In this document: piece by piece, positions 1 through 64,000 of the stretch
Layout of the letters: each line of letters opens with the position of its first letter
How positions within the stretch are numbered: the stretch's first letter is position 1
Source: a virus
Lineage: Duplodnaviria; Caudoviricetes
DNA: 64,000 nt
Reading direction: 5' to 3' (one strand)
Virus record (IMG/VR): IMGVR_UViG_3300024331_000207
Coordinates: 33,653 to 97,652 of that record
Made by a program: the position numbers and the translations under genes
Notes under the pieces: generated by a model
The model's input: only the letters and a program-made list of their open reading frames with translations
What the model was told of the DNA's origin: nothing
Databases searched by the model: none

Positions 1-1
1 C

Positions 2-1141
2 GCCGGCGGCGGCTCCTCGGCGGGCAGTGCCGCAGCCGGCAACCCGGGCAGCAATGGCGGCTCCGGCGGGACGGCGCCGACCGGCGGCGGCAACGGCGGC
101 GCGGGAACCGGCCAGTCCGGCGGCAACGGCTCGGCCGGCATGGCTCCCGGCGGCGGCGGCGGCGGGACCTACTTCGGCTCCACGACTTCCGGCGCGGGCG
201 CGAACGGCCAGGTCCGGCTGACCTACCCCGGCGGCGCGCCGACCAACAACGGCGCCGCCGCGGTCGCCGGCGGCGGTGCCGGCGGCGCGGGCGGCGGCTC
301 GTCCAACACTCCCGGCACGGCCGGCTCGCAGCCGGGCGGCGGCGGAGGAGGCGGCGACTCGGCCGGCTCCACCGAGGCGGGCGGCGCGGGCGGCGCGGGC
401 AAGCTCATCGTCACCCCCTACACCAGTGCGGCGTTCAAGACGCTGATCGCGCACCGGCCGGGCCGGTGGTCGCCGGTCCAGCTCAACCCGTTCGTGCCGG
501 TCGGGGCCGGCCTGGTCGCGCCGGGGTCCACCGAGTACACGGTGCCATCGCTGGTGACCGGGGTCAATGCCGACTTCAACGGCACCTACACCGTGCTGCT
601 GACCAACTTCTCGTTCAACAGCCCCAGCTCGTCGCGGACGGTAACGGTGACCGTCCGGCAGTACGAGGCCAGTGGCGGCGCGCACTACGACACTGCGGTC
701 TCCGCCACGTTCATCCCGAACACGCAGGCCATCAACGGGCTGCTCGTCGTGGGCACGCTGACGCTGCCGCTGAAGGCGGTCGCCGCCGACAACACGGCCG
801 GCTACTACACGGTGCTGGTCGGCGACACCAACTCAAGCGACAGGTGGTACGACTGCCTGTTCCTGGACACCCAGGGGCAGACGATCATCCTCAACGAGCC
901 GACGACGGGATACATCAACTACTACTTCGACGAGCCCGACCCCTGCCACGACCTCGGCAATTACCTGGGCAGCCAGGTCGGCCGGCCGCAGGCCATCTCG
1001 GTCATGGACGCGCTGACGGTCAGCGGCGGCCCGCTCACCATCGAGCCGGGCCAGAACACCCTGATGGCGTACGCGCAGGAGGGCGCGCCGTCCATCGCCG
1101 TCACATACTGGCCTAGGTGGCATGCTGAGAGACTAGAGTAA
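2..1141 (+). CDS. Gly-rich minor tail protein, 5' truncated by the window
   Basis: Frame is open from position 2 (AGGGSSAGSAAAGNPGSNGG...). It has GGGGG/GGAG repeats followed by a beta-rich C-terminus ending ...WPRWH, typical of siphovirus tail/baseplate genes. Confidence 0.75.
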   Translation, partial: AGGGSSAGSAAAGNPGSNGGSGGTAPTGGGNGGAGTGQSGGNGSAGMAPGGGGGGTYFGSTTSGAGANGQVRLTYPGGAPTNNGAAAVAGGGAGGAGGGSSNTPGTAGSQPGGGGGGGDSAGSTEAGGAGGAGKLIVTPYTSAAFKTLIAHRPGRWSPVQLNPFVPVGAGLVAPGSTEYTVPSLVTGVNADFNGTYTVLLTNFSFNSPSSSRTVTVTVRQYEASGGAHYDTAVSATFIPNTQAINGLLVVGTLTLPLKAVAADNTAGYYTVLVGDTNSSDRWYDCLFLDTQGQTIILNEPTTGYINYYFDEPDPCHDLGNYLGSQVGRPQAISVMDALTVSGGPLTIEPGQNTLMAYAQEGAPSIAVTYWPRWHAERLE

Positions 1142-5006: not shown

Positions 5007-6263
5007 ATGAAGGGAAAGCACCGGCAGCCGGCAAGGCCCCGCGAGAGCGGGCGGCTGCGGATCGGTATCGCGTACGGAGCGGGAGTGGCACTGGTAGCCC
5101 TCGGGGGCATCGCAGTGTCGGCAGCAGTAAGCTCGCCCATCGCCAGCCAGGCGGCCTCAGCCTCCCGGCAGGCCTCTGAGCAGGCTCTGACGGTCGCCTT
5201 CCGCGGCGGCCCGGCGCTTCCGCCCGCCGCGGGGGGCACGGTGAGCCAGCTCACCGCCAGCCCGGACTGCACGCTGCAGGTCCCGCAGAACCCGCTGTCC
5301 GCGCAGGGGCTGATGACCCCGTACGTACTGGGCTCGGCCGGCCGGCAGTGCAGCGAGGCTAATGAGGGCCTGGCTGCGTTCGTCGAGGCCACCATCTTCG
5401 ACCCGGCGACCGGCGCGCTGAGCGTCTACGACCCGGCCGTGCGGGACGCGGGCCAGCCGCTGCTGGGCAGCCCGCCGGACCCGGTGACGCTGCCGCCTGG
5501 CGCGGTGGTGACCGTCTGGACCGGCTTCAACGGCAACGTCCTGAAGCTGACAGGCCCGGGCCACGGCCAGTTCGCCAGCTTCGCGCAGCAGGGCTACGCC
5601 AACAGCCCGCAGTTCTACGCGGCCGTGAACGCCGCCGTGCACAGCGGGAAGACGATCGTGCCCGCGCTCGGCACCGGCAGCGACGGCATGACCTGCCCGT
5701 CCACCCGCGACTTCTCGGTGGTGGACCAGGACCAGTCCGACAACACCACGGTCGGCTACCCCGCCTACGGGGTGACCAACGGCAGCGACGACGCGCTGCT
5801 GCAGCACATCCAGGCCGCGCTCGGCTGCTCCCGGTGGACTGTGGCCGGCGGCACGTCCGGCGCGCTGGAGGAGCTGCAGGCCGCCTACGCGCAGGCGCCC
5901 CCGCAGGCGCTGGTGCCGTCCCTGGACCCGTTCGTGCTGAGCAACGGCCAGCCCAGCGTGTTCCTGCAGAACCTGTACCGGCTGCAGCTGGACCAGCCGG
6001 CGGCCGGCGGGCATGACACGGCAGCGTACTGCCAGAACCTGCTGGCCATCGGCGAGCCCCGGCTGAAGGCCGACCAGTCCGCGGACGCCGCCCAGCCGGC
6101 CCCGCAGTTCGCGCCGATCGGGACCGACCTGTCCCTGGTGCTGGCCGCCCGGTTCGAGGCGACATGGGGAAACCTGGACTGCCAGGCGCTGACCGGGCAG
6201 TCCTCGCCCATCACGGTGATGACAGACGGCAACGGGGTGGCCGTTTCTGCCGCCTACGCGTAA
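5007..6263 (+). CDS. Secreted or membrane-anchored hypothetical protein (418 aa)
   Basis: GGAGGG RBS before ATG 5007; basic N-terminus plus TM segment; Cys-containing domain with CTLQVPQNPLSAQGL and RDFSVVDQDQSDN. Confidence 0.75.
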   Translation: MKGKHRQPARPRESGRLRIGIAYGAGVALVALGGIAVSAAVSSPIASQAASASRQASEQALTVAFRGGPALPPAAGGTVSQLTASPDCTLQVPQNPLSAQGLMTPYVLGSAGRQCSEANEGLAAFVEATIFDPATGALSVYDPAVRDAGQPLLGSPPDPVTLPPGAVVTVWTGFNGNVLKLTGPGHGQFASFAQQGYANSPQFYAAVNAAVHSGKTIVPALGTGSDGMTCPSTRDFSVVDQDQSDNTTVGYPAYGVTNGSDDALLQHIQAALGCSRWTVAGGTSGALEELQAAYAQAPPQALVPSLDPFVLSNGQPSVFLQNLYRLQLDQPAAGGHDTAAYCQNLLAIGEPRLKADQSADAAQPAPQFAPIGTDLSLVLAARFEATWGNLDCQALTGQSSPITVMTDGNGVAVSAAYA

Positions 6264-8278: not shown

Positions 8279-8576
8279 GGCTGCGCCTTTCGCGATTCGC
8301 GATTCGTGAATCCTGCGGGCCTGCGACGGACCTTCAGAGTCAAGCCGAGCCAGCTTCAGTGTAGCGCCGCGCCTCTCGCTGCCCTGCTACACCCACGGCG
8401 TGTCCGCGCGATCGACAGGGCCGGCCGGCACGCGCCCCTGCGCCTGCGGGCAGGCCTCATCCCACTGGCGCTGCAGGTCCGCCATCCTGGCGTCCCATTC
8501 CGGGGTATGCGCGACTCCGGCGGCTACCTCGATCCGGTAGCGCGCGAGCGTGTAAATCTCTGCCGGATACATGCGG

Positions 8577-8870
8577 TCAGGCAGCCTGGCCGTCACGCTC
8601 GCGGCGCGCCTCGGCGGCCTGGCGCCGCGCAGTCTCCTGCTGGTTCTCGCGCTTGCGCACGGGAGCCTCGCCGCGCGTCCAGCCCATCTCGGCGCGGATG
8701 CGGTCCGCCCAGCGGCGGGCGTCGGCCTTCGGCGGCCCCGTGGGCCGCTTGTACTGCGGGGGATGGGGCGGCCAGGGGCCGGGCTCGGTGACCTCCTGGC
8801 GGTCGCAGTGGCGCGCGATATGGCCCAGCCCACCGCAGGCGAAGCAGCGAAACGGCTCGTCGTCATACAT
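8577..8870 (-). CDS. CCHC zinc-knuckle protein
   Basis: CFACGGLGHIARHC = CX2CX4HX4C; GGGAGG RBS. Confidence 0.75.
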   Translation of the reverse strand: MYDDEPFRCFACGGLGHIARHCDRQEVTEPGPWPPHPPQYKRPTGPPKADARRWADRIRAEMGWTRGEAPVRKRENQQETARRQAAEARRERDGQAA

Positions 8871-8962
8871 GGTGTGCGTCCTCCCGTCAGGCTCGCGTCA
8901 ACTGTCTGATACCCACTATATCCGGGGAAATCCAGGAGCGAGCCGCACAGGCGGAAAGTGCA

Positions 8963-9063
8963 GGTCAGGGGCGGTCGGGGAAGGCACGTCGGCGCGGGCA
9001 GGGTGGGGCCGGGAAGGCTCGGGCCGGGCAGGGGCGGGTAGTCGGGACGGCGTGGTTTGGCTA
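8963..9063 (+). repeat. Stand-alone GGN-NN pentamer tract (candidate orphan guide or decoy)
   Basis: ggtca ggggc ggtcg gggaa ggcac .. ggcgc . ggcag ggtgg ggccg ggaag gctcg ggccg ggcag gggcg ggtag .. gggac ggcgt ggttt ggcta; intergenic. Confidence 0.6.
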
Positions 9064-9118
9064 GCCATCTACAGGCGTCGCAGCCAGTGTAGCGCTGAGT
9101 GCACCAGGGGAATTAGGC

Positions 9119-9150
9119 GGGGGCCCGCCCCTATCCGTGGACGGGCCCCC
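9119..9150 (-). terminator. Hairpin immediately 3' of the tRNA-like CCA
   Basis: GGGGGCCCGTCC / GGCGGGCCCCC stem. Confidence 0.6.
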
Positions 9151-9221
9151 TGGTGTCAGCGGGAGTTGAACCCGCAACCTACGGCTTAACCGGCCGTCGC
9201 GCTGCCCAATTGCGCTATGAC
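9151..9221 (-). tRNA. tRNA-Asn(GTT)-like element with a 4-bp acceptor stem
   Basis: GTCA TA GCGC AATTGGGCA GCGC G ACGGC CGGTTAA GCCGT AGGTT GCGGG TTCAACT CCCGC TGAC ACCA: intact D, anticodon and T arms, short acceptor stem, G33. Confidence 0.7.
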
Positions 9222-9225
9222 GATT

Positions 9226-9452
9226 GGTTCCGCCTCTTCTGCATCGCCCGGCCGGCCCTGCGGGTCAGTCGCGGCAGCGGCGCTCTGCCTTTAAGCTAGC
9301 CCTCCGCGTGGAGGAGGGCCCCGGACTCGAACCGGGATCTCCTGTGCCTTGCCTGCGGCCCGGCGGGCGAAAAGCGGTGACCTGAAGTCTGCGAGCGACG
9401 AATCCGAACCTGTGGCTGAGTGCGGCTCTTCCGAGTCTGAGGTCTGTGCTCG
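9226..9452 (-). ncRNA. ncRNA with a circularly permuted tRNA-like domain (YrlA-like topology) and a 5' hexamer-repeat leader
   Basis: T arm 9336-9320, acceptor 3' strand GCCCTCC + TCCA, 3-nt linker, acceptor 5' strand GGAGGGC, TA, D arm 9296-9282; closed by a long stem (9361-9377 with 9230-9255); -10-like TAGTAT at 9464-9459. Confidence 0.8.
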
Positions 9453-9471
9453 TATCACATACTACACAGGC

Positions 9472-9508
9472 GAGCGGCCCCCCGCACCCAATAAACGGGG
9501 GGCCGCTC
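9472..9508 (-). terminator. Hairpin between the upstream gene and the ncRNA
   Basis: 13-bp perfect inverted repeat GAGCGGCCCCCCG / CGGGGGGCCGCTC. Confidence 0.6.
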
Positions 9509-9534
9509 TCATCCCGGGCACGTCTGCCCGAGGC

Positions 9535-10302
9535 TCAGGGGCGCAGCCACCAGTCGAACAGCGTCCGGCCCTCGCTGTAATCCTCCACCACCGCCGTGTT
9601 GGCCTCCTCGCGGGCGTACTTTACCGCCTCGCGCAGCTGCGCCAGCCGGTCCAGCAGCTGCCGCTTGCGCCGGGCGGTGACCGCGCCGGAGTACTTCACC
9701 GTGGTCCAGTAGCCGACCACCTCCTGGCGCTGCCGCACCTCCACCCTCGGCTCCACGAGCAGGCCCTCGATCACCTGGGCCTTGACCAGCTCGTGATTGA
9801 ACAGGACGGTGTCCTCGCTGGTCGTCTCGGTGCCCGGGGTGCGGTACTGGCCCTCCTCGGTGTCGGAGTCGCTCCAGCTCTCGGTCGCGTCGAGCACCGG
9901 CAGCCGCAGCGCGAAGGAGTACAGCTCCGCCAGCCGCCCCTCCAGGAAGATCAGGTGATCGGTCGGCACCTGCGTCAGCAGCGTCTCGCCGTCCACCGTC
10001 ACGTCGCCGCGGGCGCTCATCTTCGCCTCATCCAGCGTCCGGGTCACGTCCAGCTGACGGGTGAGCAGCTGGCGGACGTCCTCCAGCACGCCGGCCACGG
10101 TCACCTGTACGGGCTTGTGCTGCGCGGGCCGCTGCAGCGGGGCCGGCTGGCCGGGCCGCGGCTCGGCGCGGGGCTGGTAGGTCTTGCTGATGCCCGTGGT
10201 CAGCTCGGGCGAGGAGACGGCCTGGCCGAGCACGTCCATCCGGGCGTTAACGTCCGCCTTGACGCCGCCGACGACGGCAAGAATCTGGGAGATGCGAGTC
10301 AT
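9535..10302 (-). CDS. Conserved helical hypothetical protein (recalled as DUF7873-type; unverified), probably leaderless
   Basis: GISKTYQP, VPTDHLIFLE, LPVLD, VGYWTTVKYSGA and AVKYAREEAN motifs; TACATT -10 lies 6 nt before ATG 10302. Confidence 0.8.
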   Translation of the reverse strand: MTRISQILAVVGGVKADVNARMDVLGQAVSSPELTTGISKTYQPRAEPRPGQPAPLQRPAQHKPVQVTVAGVLEDVRQLLTRQLDVTRTLDEAKMSARGDVTVDGETLLTQVPTDHLIFLEGRLAELYSFALRLPVLDATESWSDSDTEEGQYRTPGTETTSEDTVLFNHELVKAQVIEGLLVEPRVEVRQRQEVVGYWTTVKYSGAVTARRKRQLLDRLAQLREAVKYAREEANTAVVEDYSEGRTLFDWWLRP

Positions 10303-16790: not shown

Positions 16791-17219
16791 CAGTCCCGCC
16801 ACACCGCGCCACGCCCTGCGGAGCCGCTGCCTTGCCCGCCAGGCCGAACCTATCCTGCCGCCCCTGCCGATGCGCCCCTTCCCTTGCCGACGCCATGCGC
16901 GCCTGTCCGCTGCTGCCGATGCTGGCCTGTCCGAACGACCCCTGTGCCTGCCGCGCCGGACCTATCCGCCCCTGCCAAGCCACGCCGCGCCCAGCCATGC
17001 CGGGCCGGTCCCGTCCTCACCTGACCACGCCTGCCAGGCCTTGCCTTGCCGAACCCCGCCCCTGCAGGCCTTGCCGCGCCTGGCCTCACCTGACCTTGCC
17101 TGCCGATCCGCGCCTAGCCCGTCCCTGCCGTGCCAAGCCCTTCCCAGCCGAGCCGTGCCTAGCCAACCCTGCCATGCCGAGCCTTGCCTGGCCGGACCCT
17201 GCCTATCCGTGTCCATCCC
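16791..17219 (-). ncRNA. GGN-NN pentamer array (about 80 pentamers), candidate multi-guide RNA
   Basis: Strict 5-nt period, mostly GGC/GGT/GGA plus a variable dinucleotide; GGCA tetramer spacers at plus 17170, 17101, 17032, 16973, 16949, 16914, 16865; preceded by hairpin GTGAGC-CCG-GCTCAC at the upstream stop codon. Confidence 0.85.
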
Positions 17220-17235: not shown

Positions 17236-17715
17236 TCACTCGCCAGATGCCGCTGCGTCCTGTTCACCCATCATGCTTCGCAGCGCGGCCCAGAATTCGG
17301 GCAGCGCCTGGTACCGTGCCCGGAGTGCGGCTATCTCTCTCGCCATCCGGCTGAGGAGGATGCGCCGCTCCAGGTCGGTTATCGATTCGGCCGCGACGTA
17401 CGTGCCTGGCGGCACCGTCCGGCCGACGTTGCGGCCCGCCTGGTACTCGCGCAGCAGGTACTGGCGCACCTCGCCGTCGGCAGCCTCCTCCAGGACCTTG
17501 AGCCGGCAGCTGCGGATGAGCGCCGTCGCCTGCGCGAACCTGTACCGTTCGGCAGCCTCGGCGTCGTTCCAGGTGAACCGGTCATGCAACGGGCTCCCGT
17601 CCGGCCGGGCCGCCTCAAGAACCGCGAACGCTGACACATTACCGCCCTCGTCCGCAAGCTGCCGGATCTCCCGGCGGACGGGATCGTCAGGCTGGATGAC
17701 CCTGATCACGGTCAC
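17236..17715 (-). CDS. Accessory protein coupled to the RAMP-like gene (159 aa)
   Basis: GTGA overlap; SPLHDRFTWNDAEAAERYRFAQA..LIR motif. Confidence 0.8.
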   Translation of the reverse strand: MTVIRVIQPDDPVRREIRQLADEGGNVSAFAVLEAARPDGSPLHDRFTWNDAEAAERYRFAQATALIRSCRLKVLEEAADGEVRQYLLREYQAGRNVGRTVPPGTYVAAESITDLERRILLSRMAREIAALRARYQALPEFWAALRSMMGEQDAAASGE

Positions 17716-18392
17716 AGCGTGACCTTGGTGATTTTGGCGTCCGCTGGCACCGTGAAGGTGCCGTAGCTGCCAGTCTTGGATTCCTTGGAGCCGGGGCGCC
17801 ACTCGCCGAGGCCGCTCAGTCCGGCCGCGTCGACCAGCGCGACGATGGTGTCGCTCTTATACAGGGCCGACGGGTAGGTGACGCTGAGGACCGCGCTCCA
17901 CGGGGAATACTGCGGCCGGAAGCGGATGTCGGCTACGCCTGACTCGTTCCTGGCGTAATCCTGCCGCATCGTCGGCTCGGCGGGCTTGAGTGTCGCAGGG
18001 TCACCCGTCCACTCGCCGTAGATCGGCACCAGGAGATCGCCGTCCTCACCGCCTTCGCCGTGCACGAAGATCGTCCGCTTGAGTGACTCCATGGTCAGCT
18101 TCTGTCCGGGGAAAAACCGCGCGGCGTCAACGACCGCGCCCTTGAATGCGACAGCCGGCATCCCGGAGCGACCGTCGGCGAAGAGGTGCATGGCTCCGCG
18201 GAACATCTCCTCGGGGTTCTTGTGCTCGCGCTGGACGACTTCGCCCATCTGCTTTGCCAGCATCTGCGCCTGGGCCTTGGCGCTGAATTTGTTAACGATC
18301 AGGGGGGTGAGTCCCTGGATCGGAATGCTGAGCGTTGCACGCCCGATGCGCTGCAGGGTGATCTGCGGCGGCTGCTGGGCACGTGGTGGCAT
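17712..18392 (-). CDS. RAMP/Cas7-like RNA-binding protein (226 aa)
   Basis: GGAGGG RBS; IPIQGLTPLIV (beta1, TPL), MPAVAFKGAVVDA (cf. IPGSSLKGALR), DIRFRP, C-terminal Gly loop GLSGLGEWRP...GSYGTFTV. Confidence 0.75.
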   Translation of the reverse strand: MPPRAQQPPQITLQRIGRATLSIPIQGLTPLIVNKFSAKAQAQMLAKQMGEVVQREHKNPEEMFRGAMHLFADGRSGMPAVAFKGAVVDAARFFPGQKLTMESLKRTIFVHGEGGEDGDLLVPIYGEWTGDPATLKPAEPTMRQDYARNESGVADIRFRPQYSPWSAVLSVTYPSALYKSDTIVALVDAAGLSGLGEWRPGSKESKTGSYGTFTVPADAKITKVTL

Positions 18393-18601
18393 GATGCCCT
18401 CCGTGATCGCTAGGCTGTCGCCGGTATTCCGACCGCTTGTCGGCCGGCCGCCTCGACGGCTACTGTAGCGCATGCGTTATGCTTCATGTACCCCGTTCAA
18501 CAGAAGGGGTCTGACACTCCAGCGAGAGGAGACGGCATGCTGAACCGGCATCTCATGCCCAGAGGCTAAGGAGCCAGCATGAGAGGGGGTGAGATCACCC
18601 C

Positions 18602-26272: not shown

Positions 26273-26878
26273 ATGGCCCTGCCCGACGCCGAGTTCGCGG
26301 CGCTCGCCACCCACAAGGCGGCCCCGTTCGCGCCCGGCTACCCCGCCTCGGCGCTCACCTTCTACTCCCCGGTCGACGAGGTGCACGCGGTACTCGCTGA
26401 GCTGGTCGCTTCAGCATCCAAGTCGCTGGTCGTGGCCATGTACGGCTTCGACGACGACGACCTGGCCACGGCGATCCACGGCAAGCTGGACGACCCCGGC
26501 ATCTTCGTGCAGCTGTCCCTGGACTCCAGCCAGGCGGGCGGCGTGCACGAGAAGGCGCTGCTCGCCAAGAACAACTACCCGGCCAACTCTCTCGCGATCG
26601 GGCGCAGCGAGAAGGGCGCCATCATGCATCAAAAGCTCGTCATCGTCGACGGGCTGGACATCGTGACAGGCAGCACCAACTGGTCCGCGGGCGGCGAGTC
26701 GAAGCAGGACAACCAGCTGACGGTGATCCGCGACCCGTTCGTGGCTGCCGAGGCGCGCGCCCGCATCGACGTGATCCACACGAACATGCTCCAGCAGATG
26801 GCGGCGGCCGCGGCGAAGGCAGCCGGCCGGGCGGCGCCGCCGACCATGGCCCAGATCCACGCGGCGATGACCGCGTGA
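26273..26878 (+). CDS. Single-HKD phospholipase D family protein (Nuc-like)
   Basis: [10 protein letters not shown]...TGSTNWS...QDN. Confidence 0.9.
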
Positions 26879-36456: not shown

Positions 36457-37106
36457 TCTGAGCCCTCCGTGTACAGCTGGTATCTCGCCAGCCGCCCGCG
36501 GCCGGCCGGCCGCGGGCCCGAGCACCCGCATGGGCACCAGGCGCGCGAGCCGTTCAGTACCTGGCGCACCCGCTCGCGCGAGATGCCGAACTGCTCCCCG
36601 ATCAGCTGGTAGCTGAGGCCCGCCTCGCGCATCGCCCCGATCGCCCGGTCCCGCTCGGCAATGCAGCCCGACTCGCGCGCCGCCGCGGCGAGCCGCGGTG
36701 CCTGCTGTGCTGCCTGCTCCCAGCTGTCGCGGCGCCTGTCCGCGTTCGCCGCCCGCTCCGTCTCCCTCCGCCGGGCGCGCAGCCACTGGCCAGCCCGCCC
36801 GCCGGAGTGCCACCACTGCTCCCCGGCGGGCGTGATGTACCACCGGTAGCAGGGGGTGCGGTGATACCAGTCCGAGGGCTCCGTCCGCCGCGAGCGGCGG
36901 ACCCGTCCGGCCGCCGCCAGCTCCTTCAGGAGGGCGTTCACCCTGACGGCCCTGGCCAGGGTGCCGGGCGGATCGGTGAAGGCCCGGGAGATCGCCCCGG
37001 CCTGCATGCCCTCGCGCCCGGCCAGGACGAGCAGGCCGAGCACCGGCATGACCCGCGGGGCGTTCACGGCAGTCCCGGTCTCCGCTATGGCCAGTTCAGG
37101 CTCCAT
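36447..37106 (-). CDS. Regulator with a C-terminal sigma70 region-4-like HTH
   Basis: GLSYQLIGEQFGISRERVRQ. Confidence 0.7.
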   Translation of the reverse strand: MEPELAIAETGTAVNAPRVMPVLGLLVLAGREGMQAGAISRAFTDPPGTLARAVRVNALLKELAAAGRVRRSRRTEPSDWYHRTPCYRWYITPAGEQWWHSGGRAGQWLRARRRETERAANADRRRDSWEQAAQQAPRLAAAARESGCIAERDRAIGAMREAGLSYQLIGEQFGISRERVRQVLNGSRAWCPCGCSGPRPAGRGRLARYQLYTEGSEWN

Positions 37107-37206
37107 TACTCTCCTTGTCCTTCCGGGCAAAGCCGCCGCCAGGCGGCGTCCGGAATGACTGATTGCAACAGGACCTCAATCGGCCCCGCCTCCCTGTAAG
37201 TGTAAG

Positions 37207-37641
37207 CTATGCGCTACCACGGATGCCGAACCGCTGCCCGACGGCCTGCCGGGTGATGCCCAGCGCCTCGCCGATCTCGGTGTCGGAGTACCTCTCGCGC
37301 AGCCGCGCTACCGCCTCGTGCGTGAGCGCGTCGACCTGCCGGGCGAACGCGGCCAGCGCGGCCAGCGCCTCCAGGTCCCCGGCAGCCCGCAGGCCGGCCG
37401 AGTCCAGCAGCCGGCGGTCCCGCCCGGCAAGCTCGGCCGGGCTGTACCACCGGTACTTCCTGGCCTCCGCCTTGCGCTGCCTGCGCTTGGCCCTGTCGGC
37501 GCTCAGCGCATCCGCCTTCCCCTGGCGTACCGCCGCCAGGATGAAGCCGACCTGATACGCGGGATAGCCGGCCAGCTCCCTGACCAGGGCTTCGGGTGCA
37601 CCGGGAAGCTCCCGGCGCACCCTGTCCTCACGGTTGCGCAT
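37207..37641 (-). CDS. HTH DNA-binding protein
   Basis: SDTEIGEALGITRQAVGQRFG. Confidence 0.75.
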   Translation of the reverse strand: MRNREDRVRRELPGAPEALVRELAGYPAYQVGFILAAVRQGKADALSADRAKRRQRKAEARKYRWYSPAELAGRDRRLLDSAGLRAAGDLEALAALAAFARQVDALTHEAVARLRERYSDTEIGEALGITRQAVGQRFGIRGSA

Positions 37642-63259: not shown

Positions 63260-63409
63260 GGTGGCCTACCTCCTTGCACGCGCGCGTAGGGCTGGCCCCT
63301 TGCCTGCCCTGCTGTAGATCCGCGCGCGCTGCATAGCCCGAGCGTACAGGAGATTTGGACGATCACATAACCGCAGGTCAGAGACCTAATGCGATGTCAA
63401 TTTCGAAGG

Positions 63410-63980
63410 GAGGAACCGGACATAAGGTGCATAACGGACATGCAGAACCGGACATAGGTCACATCCTGTCCCACCTGTAATTCCTACCGATATTGTCGGG
63501 TAGCTCCTGGGCCTGATCGTTAGCCTTGCTAACGAGTTCGGGTGTGACATGCGTCACAGGTCGAGGGTAGTCGACCCCCACGCATGACGTGGGCCGGCCG
63601 CCAGGGCACTCGTTAGCCTTGCTAACGAGTTGCCTCGTGATGCGATATGTCCGGTTCGTGCCGGCCCCCCTCTGAGCTGGTCAGATACGCCTCAGAGAAC
63701 GGACATATTGGTACATAACGGACACCAGGCAAGTCGGAACTGGTGTTCGGGCCGACCGTCGCGGTGTTCGAACGCTCGAACGTTAGCCTTGCTAACGATC
63801 CACCACCGACAGTGCACGAGGGTAGTCGACCCTATCCGTCCCATATGTCCGGTTCGCCCCGTCTCGCCCCCTCTGCCCTGGTATGGGGTGTCTGCACCAC
63901 TATGCCCGCTTCGCCCCGTATGTGCCCATATGTAGCGCTATGTCCGGTATGGGAGGAATGGGCGAAATGTCCGAATTTTT
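63410..63980. repeat. Repeat-rich non-coding region (candidate genome end, packaging site or origin)
   Basis: CGTTAGC-CTT-GCTAACG palindrome three times (63518, 63611, 63781); CGAGGGTAGTCGACCC twice (63562, 63817); about nine CGGACA/TGTCCG. Confidence 0.7.
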
Positions 63981-64000
63981 TCGAAAATTTTATCGGGGAC

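Follow-up and report, generated by a model that had tools for sequence, protein, structure and literature searches.

VIPR is a CRISPR-like, RNA-guided DNA silencer that was first described in 2026, mostly from enterobacterial and Pseudomonas phages (bioRxiv 10.64898/2026.04.26.720920, 10.64898/2026.04.26.720927). Its components, according to the same preprints, include Vipr, a stand-alone RAMP protein of phages, and vrRNAs, which consist of 9–16 GGY/NN repeats followed by an invariant 3' tail. The NN bases pair with double-stranded DNA in a two-paired/one-skipped register, as a rule within genes of competing elements and in alignment with the wobble positions, and in the solved Vipr base-specific contacts are made with the pyrimidine at repeat position 3 (VIPR preprints, 2026). 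The target cut-off applied there is an 80% NN match, and self-targeting above this threshold is not reported in these two preprints (bioRxiv 10.64898/2026.04.26.720920, 10.64898/2026.04.26.720927). NNNGG variants, staggered arrays and solo vrRNAs have already been described in the bioRxiv VIPR preprints of 2026, and solo vrRNAs with a self-match lower than their rival-match have been published (bioRxiv 10.64898/2026.10.15.759431).

We analyzed a window of 64,000 nt, which makes up the right-hand two-thirds of one viral record (97,652 bp, G+C content 70%). The left arm carries structural genes on the plus strand; the other genes are mostly on the minus strand. Protein comparison revealed similarity between the proteins of this phage and those of Mycobacterium, Gordonia, and Arthrobacter phages, which makes an actinomycete the probable host. 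The right end of the record (window 63260–64000) is a non-coding stretch of 740 nt with lower G+C content, in which a box with a palindrome, GTTAGCCTTGCTAACGA, occurs three times along with several repeats resembling AACGGACAT. This region may be an origin, an operator or a packaging region, and joining the ends of the record would place it against an array of pentamers located at genome position 1.

Two adjacent genes of the window relate the phage to the described VIPR systems:

17712–18392, minus strand: vipr, for a stand-alone RAMP/Cas7-like protein of 226 aa; the tract described below is 8.7 kb away.
17236–17715, minus strand: candidate vap (vipr accessory) gene, designated by position only; overlaps the vipr stop; phrog_15946, function unknown.

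The only sequence in PDB matching the vipr product was SUSP1 Vipr (E = 0.01). A profile built from 60 of the 2,416 family representatives likewise had a single PDB match, 36pp_D, "SUSP1 Vipr protein", over the full length and with E = 1.3e-11. The AlphaFold model of the product (pLDDT 93.5) had Csm3/Cas7 as its top Foldseek matches, and a GxGxWRP...G motif near the C terminus was conserved among 60 Vipr homologues. The product of 17712–18392 thus combines the characters that define the Vipr family: a single-RRM RAMP, a G-rich loop, and homology to a characterized Vipr. Based on the profile match and the Csm3/Cas7-like modeled fold, we conclude that the phage carries a VIPR system. Neither blastp nor tblastn detected a second Vipr gene for arrays of the GTC type (see below) across the 97.6-kb record.

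The tract on which we focused is intergenic, with a CCHC zinc-knuckle gene on one side and tRNA-Asn (9151–9224, minus strand) on the other; a DUF7873 gene is located beyond tRNA-Asn, as seen from the tract. The genes and the tRNA flanking it are all on the minus strand. A sequence-only reading had reported about 18 intergenic pentamers, G-rich on the plus strand, between positions 8963 and 9063. Our phase-aware parse agrees on strand and placement, finding about 19 pentamers in this interval and about 21 GGNNN pentamers overall, arranged in three phase blocks with GTC between the blocks. The features of the locus are:

8577–8870, minus strand: CCHC zinc-knuckle gene, 97 aa, Pfam zf-CCHC.
8915–8920, minus strand: TATAGT box, -10-like, in the zinc-knuckle gene's own promoter region; TATAGT/TATACT is present in this phage and in its relatives L120 and L121.
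8948–8987, plus strand: leader block, eight pentamers, 6/8 starting with GG; weakly periodic.
8988–9040, plus strand: GTC junction (8988–8990) and putative guide unit of ten GGNNN pentamers (8991–9040), 10/10 with GG.
9041–9058, plus strand: second GTC junction and pre-tail block, GGGAC GGCGT GGTTT at 9044–9058, 3/3 with GG.
9059–9079, plus strand: diverged 3' tail, GGCTAGCCATC-TACAGGCGTC, the counterpart of GTCGTAGCCGTC..TACCGGCGTC.
9086–9095, minus strand: GCGCTACACT box, -10-like TACACT, pointing leftward through the tract toward the zinc-knuckle gene.

The tRNA was the sole match in an Rfam scan. A DNA similarity search of positions 8500–9500 against phages returned tRNA-level matches only, and in the DUF7873 neighborhoods of IMG/VR a tRNA was present and the tract absent. 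The DUF7873 gene is separated from a tRNA by a tRNA-like element (window 9230–9379, minus strand) in which the T arm and acceptor precede the D arm. This element had earlier been read as a permuted tRNA mimic, and it recurs beside DUF7873 in distant relatives (L002:4880–4960, L121:9640–9760).

The variable dinucleotides of the guide unit are diverse (GC CA TG CC AA TC CC CA GC TA). The tract has the repeat structure that defines vrRNAs, that is, tandem 5-nt units with a fixed GG and a hypervariable NN in at least four, typically 9–16, copies. The third position of the core is G in 8/10 pentamers and a pyrimidine in 2/10, which departs from the GGY of vrRNAs. Given that NNNGG variants were accepted in the VIPR discovery paper, the GGG-type third base is a variant and not a ground for exclusion; it does count against loading by a GGY-reading Vipr. 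The leader block differs in nature from the guide unit: alignment with L120 showed it to be homologous to plain intergenic DNA of relatives, and it is thus probably not a guide. The decoding search found no significant target for the leader block.

The 5-nt periodicity was compared with the genome background. For window lengths of 45 and 60, the G period-5 power at the tract was the highest of approximately 97,600 genome positions; for a window length of 100, over which both 3-nt GTC junctions disrupt the phase, its rank fell to the top 1.4%. The pattern (GGNNN)5GG occurred at five loci in the 97.6-kb genome, as compared to a mean of 0.29 and a maximum of two in order-2 Markov simulations. The five loci are:

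Genome 1–290, plus strand: array of seven units, GTC-punctuated, at the very start of the contig.
Genome 5304–5350, plus strand: single unit in the structural arm, (GGNNN)5GG locus.
Genome 26481–26535, plus strand: single unit in the structural arm, GTC-type, ending in the tail motif.
Window 8948–9079, plus strand: the tract, GTC-type, with a diverged tail.
Window 16800–17215, minus strand: main array, putative vrRNAs, 420 nt and about seven units, GGYNN with GG-CA junctions, downstream of vipr and vap.

The tract had been described as having the same grammar as the main array. This holds for the GG frame, which is common to both; it does not hold for the third position, which is C/T in 50/66 pentamers of the main array and G in 8/10 here, or for the junctions, which are GG-CA and GTC, respectively. 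The GTC punctuation and the 3' tail motif of the tract are instead common to the arrays at genome 1–290 and 26481, both of which close with GTCGTAGCCGTC..TACCGGCGTC. The motifs TAGCC[GA]TC and AC[CA]GGCGTC co-occurred at the three GTC-type loci only (195 kb, both strands), and the final pre-tail pentamer of the tract, GGTTT, is identical to the last pentamer of the array at genome 26481. Upon alignment, the tail of the tract was about 70% identical to the two other tails, with a 3-nt deletion, and a phase break lies between it and the ten-repeat unit. The internal units of the array at genome 1–290 have no tails. The exact tail motif had zero matches in IMG/VR, and its relaxed version gave chance matches only in genomes and metagenomes, none with an array before it. 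A (GGGNN)n pattern scan of IMG/VR was uninformative, yielding mostly poly-G-like matches at contig ends. Both halves of the tail motif also occur in the vipr operon leader (window 18415–18471, minus strand), which begins with GCGCTACAGT and continues with GTAGCCGTC and TACCGGCGAC, about 28 nt apart; they may mimic a tail or represent a first handle that lacks a guide.

Transcription signals were examined on both strands. GCGCTACAnT, with at most one mismatch, occurs 10 times in the window (3894–35511), 10/10 on the minus strand, and several GCGCTACACT-type boxes are directly upstream of minus-strand gene starts, that of the vipr operon included. We infer that the GCGCTACACT box is a promoter. 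If active, the copy at 9095–9086 would transcribe the tract in antisense, which could matter for regulation. The sequence-only reading had pointed to this box as a -10 and to the C-rich strand as the one possibly transcribed; the box is indeed a real, recurrent minus-strand motif, and the C-rich strand is not supported as the functional reading, VIPR guides being the GG-rich strand. For the DUF7873 gene, a leaderless transcript is suggested by another copy of GCGCTACAnT, whose end lies 1 nt ahead of the GTG start. On the plus strand, a scan plus inspection gave no convincing promoter for the tract, and consensus promoter and terminator scans of 8300–9700 found nothing.

The C-rich strand also holds an open frame of 50 codons, rich in Pro (8916–9068, minus strand), and the GGG-NN runs fit the G3N1-7 quadruplex motif. 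One could see in the tract a G-quadruplex/i-motif-prone spacer, a small gene for a Pro-rich protein, or G-richness that arose by chance, the genome having 70% GC. The frame exists as had been noted, yet its composition is non-coding: its GC3 is 0.68 (gene median 0.92, minimum 0.79), its codon log-odds are -0.43 per codon (gene median +0.32), and no family match was found for it. Chance G-richness does not agree with five loci where 0.3 are expected, and a reading of the tract as anything other than a guide leaves the GTC junctions, the shared tail motif, the Vipr gene and the wobble-phased match to the neighboring gene (see below) unexplained. We regard it as very improbable. A Rho-utilization site or C-rich leader was rejected since it leaves the junctions, the tail, and the target code unexplained. 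The repeats of Tweety gp54 were considered as a precedent and set aside, being unrelated 12-bp coding repeats.

We decoded the ten-repeat unit 8991–9040 by the published 1-nt-skip rule, in the register set by GTC. The genome-wide best match of the guide was 15/20 at 8814–8843, only 175 nt away, in the codons FACGGLGHIA of the zinc knuckle. The match is antisense to the gene, and its skipped bases coincide with the wobble positions of the codons. The ideal codons for this guide would be those of Y-A-C-G-E/D-F/L-G-H-C/W-A. Equal-sized windows reached 15/20 with the guide in 1.2% of cases; by itself, the own-genome 15/20 is not above shuffled guides. The register initially proposed for the middle unit (AG GG CG ...) turned out to be one base off and produced weaker matches (14/18).

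Two homologues of the zinc-knuckle gene were available in public data, with 87% and 48% identity. The homologous site scored 17/20 in each of the relatives L120 and L121 (YTCGEYGHYA and YSCGELGHYA), where it was in frame, antisense and the best site of the locus. In 52.8 kb of related DNA, a score of 17 was attained by shuffled guides in 0.5% of trials, and with the guide itself 17 was obtained with a 1-nt skip only, skips of 0, 2, and 3 giving 11–15. The site in the relatives has the attributes of a VIPR target: a 1-nt skip, a match of at least 80%, wobble alignment, location in a presumably competing element, and a score below threshold in the phage's own genome (17/20 versus 15/20). The value of 17/20 (85%) is barely over the published 80% cut-off, and exact search of IMG/VR and JGI metagenomes for a perfect target gave zero hits. 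The zinc-knuckle protein of this phage and its 87% homologue (P0006) are near identical outside residues 7–27 and heavily diverged inside. L120 and L121 are without the tract at the corresponding position; alignment with them showed about 135 extra bases in this phage, between the tRNA-side hairpin and the conserved TATAGT/TATACT promoter region. Single-protein searches of IMG/VR with the zinc-knuckle, protease, and first-gene products returned few or no close relatives. Relatives are present in the metagenome samples ERZ27256752, ERZ1760248, SRR29078244, and SRR24767407.

The tract might also be a decaying remnant, that is, a once-working vrRNA or an arrival by recombination with another array that is no longer processed or loaded, in which case the match to the neighbor would be a fossil. 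This would account for a tail diverged from two well-conserved ones, for the GTC phase break that leaves just three repeats attached to the tail, for the lack of a recognizable plus-strand promoter, and for the absence of a perfect target from the databases searched. Neutral decay would, however, erode GG, which is kept in 13/13 pentamers of the core and pre-tail block, and the code still fits the alleles of the relatives at 85% with exact wobble phasing. Moreover, as the internal units at genome 1–290 are also tailless, a tail per unit may be unnecessary. Decay is thus an unlikely explanation.

The other guides of the phage were decoded in the same manner. The last, tail-bearing unit of the array at genome 1–290 (A1.7) spells MTTVVFNL, which is exactly the peptide found in a homologue with 82% identity to the adjacent first gene; the unit scored 15/16 on the DNA of another relative versus 14/16 on its own allele, ATTVVFNL, with the mismatch at the repeat beside the tail. 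The unit at genome 5304 (A2.1) had its best match in the adjacent protease gene (16/18), and that at genome 26481 (A3.1) in its own adjacent gene (14/16). The last unit of the main array (A5.7, window 16800–16860) matched the Cas4-like exonuclease gene of L121 (1602–1634) at 20/22, in frame and antisense; its best score in the own genome within about 600 nt of the unit was only 12/22, and the own exonuclease gene, which adjoins A5.7, is diverged at the target site. Taken together, five of five located guides have their best match in the next-door gene or its homologue in a relative, all five sites are antisense to their gene, and wherever a guide could be scored on relatives (three guides), their version fits better than the phage's own.

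The own-neighbor scores of A1.7, A2.1, and A3.1 (14/16, 16/18, and 14/16, or 87–89%) exceed the 80% self-target cut-off of the preprints, and this, along with the antisense orientation of all five located targets and the recurrence of the -10-like box before several minus-strand genes, could speak for regulation in cis. The guide would then tune its own adjacent gene despite the mismatches, or a leftward, C-rich leader of the zinc-knuckle gene starting from GCGCTACACT would neutralize the guide by pairing with it or would itself be the product. For the tract, however, the own allele is the poorer match (15/20 versus 17/20), and the differences between the own protein and that of the relative cluster in the target, as expected of escape and not of regulation. 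In addition, the relatives express their zinc-knuckle gene from the conserved TATAGT/TATACT region with no tract present, and self-targeting above threshold has not been reported in the VIPR preprints. We give self-directed regulation little credence.

Our analysis makes it likely that the tract is a separate vrRNA gene of the phage's VIPR system, probably one that yields a trans-acting guide against rival alleles and is linked to a resistant allele. An orphan guide acting in trans had been one of three readings offered at the outset, next to an antisense sponge and a remnant, and it is preferred because a Vipr gene is present, the architecture is that of a vrRNA, the tail motif is shared with other loci, and the code matches the family of the neighboring gene. 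By analogy with the SUSP1 and P. fulva systems (bioRxiv 10.64898/2026.04.26.720920, 10.64898/2026.04.26.720927), the plus strand would be made into a small RNA that begins with a short leader and GTC, continues with ten GGNNN repeats and a further three, and ends in the 3' tail. Copies of Vipr, supplied by the gene 8.7 kb away, would align along this RNA, one per pentamer, holding GG(N) aside and presenting the two variable bases of each repeat. These bases would pair with double-stranded DNA in the two-paired/one-skipped register, and binding would block transcription. The likely use would be to silence the zinc-knuckle gene of competing relatives in co-infection or superinfection, with the linked own allele escaping via its five mismatches. 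The architecture of the repeats, the sharing of the tail motif, the homology to Vipr, and the matches to targets are observations; transcription of the plus strand, loading onto the phage's own Vipr, silencing, and the competitive role are steps that we infer. Several observations count against a guide: the minus-strand neighbors, the lack of a convincing plus-strand promoter, the antisense -10-like box, the diverged tail, and the lack of a perfect target in IMG/VR and JGI metagenomes. Furthermore, the Vipr encoded beside a GGY-type main array may not load GGG-type repeats.

A broader pattern can be put forward tentatively, and we consider it possible though somewhat doubtful: guides are scattered over the genome, each located beside the gene whose rival alleles it targets, and the linked own allele carries escape substitutions, forming a "weapon plus immune allele" cassette. 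If true, such a cassette could spread by recombination among co-infecting relatives, as in homing-endonuclease marker exclusion, and new VIPR guides may arise locally, from or beside their targets; the VIPR preprints consulted are silent on the origin of guides. Should the neighbor-target pattern hold, guides could be annotated by a simple rule, namely to look beside the target; warfare between alleles of sibling phages could be modeled in a testable way; and there would be a clue to how VIPR guides are created and spare their carrier.

The phage under study would represent a high-GC actinophage in which a single vipr gene is accompanied by five or more guide loci of two repeat styles, mostly located far from vipr. 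As in SUSP1 and the Pseudomonas fulva prophage (bioRxiv 10.64898/2026.04.26.720920, 10.64898/2026.04.26.720927), a stand-alone RAMP gene (Vipr) and a candidate accessory gene are carried by a phage; 5-nt repeats with a fixed GG and two variable bases are followed by a putative 3' tail; and 1-nt-skip targets are wobble-aligned in genes of competing phages, with the own-genome match of the tract below the 80% cut-off. The tract differs from those systems in belonging to a high-GC actinophage, in its third base, which is mostly G and not a pyrimidine, and in its GTC joins with a 3-nt phase shift. The tail shows no sequence relationship to the pseudoknot tail of SUSP1, and searches of IMG/VR, genomes, and metagenomes did not reveal it in another place. 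The tract also sits 8.7 kb from vipr and on the strand opposite its neighbors.

Arrays resembling the main array occur in Cluster F mycobacteriophages, for example Donkeykong (NC_051648), whose GGCNN array at 36870–37256 is about 70% identical to it and is directly upstream of the Vipr homologue gp49. Donkeykong has a single array and no dispersed tracts, and this array resembles the main array and not the GTC-type tract. The Donkeykong array, 350 nt long, is annotated as protein-coding gene 48, probably through misreading of a vrRNA array; pentamer arrays called protein genes in Cluster F mycobacteriophages would thus be a database misannotation.

Free-standing homing endonuclease genes located beside a resistant allele of their target are known from marker exclusion by phage T4. 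There, as proposed here, a weapon gene is linked to the immune version of the gene that it attacks in co-infecting relatives. The proposed RNA guide would silence and not cut, so that the likeness is one of genetic logic only, with no nuclease implicated.

The solo or orphan vrRNAs of satellites and VIPR-null phages (bioRxiv 10.64898/2026.10.15.759431) share with the tract a location away from vipr, an aim at relatives, a lower self-match and wobble alignment. By the definition used there, the tract does not count as "solo", since the phage's own vipr is less than 20 kb away. The predicted target of the tract is an ordinary phage gene, unlike the targets of the solo vrRNAs (vipr, vrRNAs, satellite recombinases, host REP decoys). 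VIPR as a kind of system and solo vrRNAs are already known, and a guide beside the resistant allele of its own target is absent from the VIPR preprints consulted; the tract differs from the solo vrRNAs in that it lies directly beside what would be such an allele.
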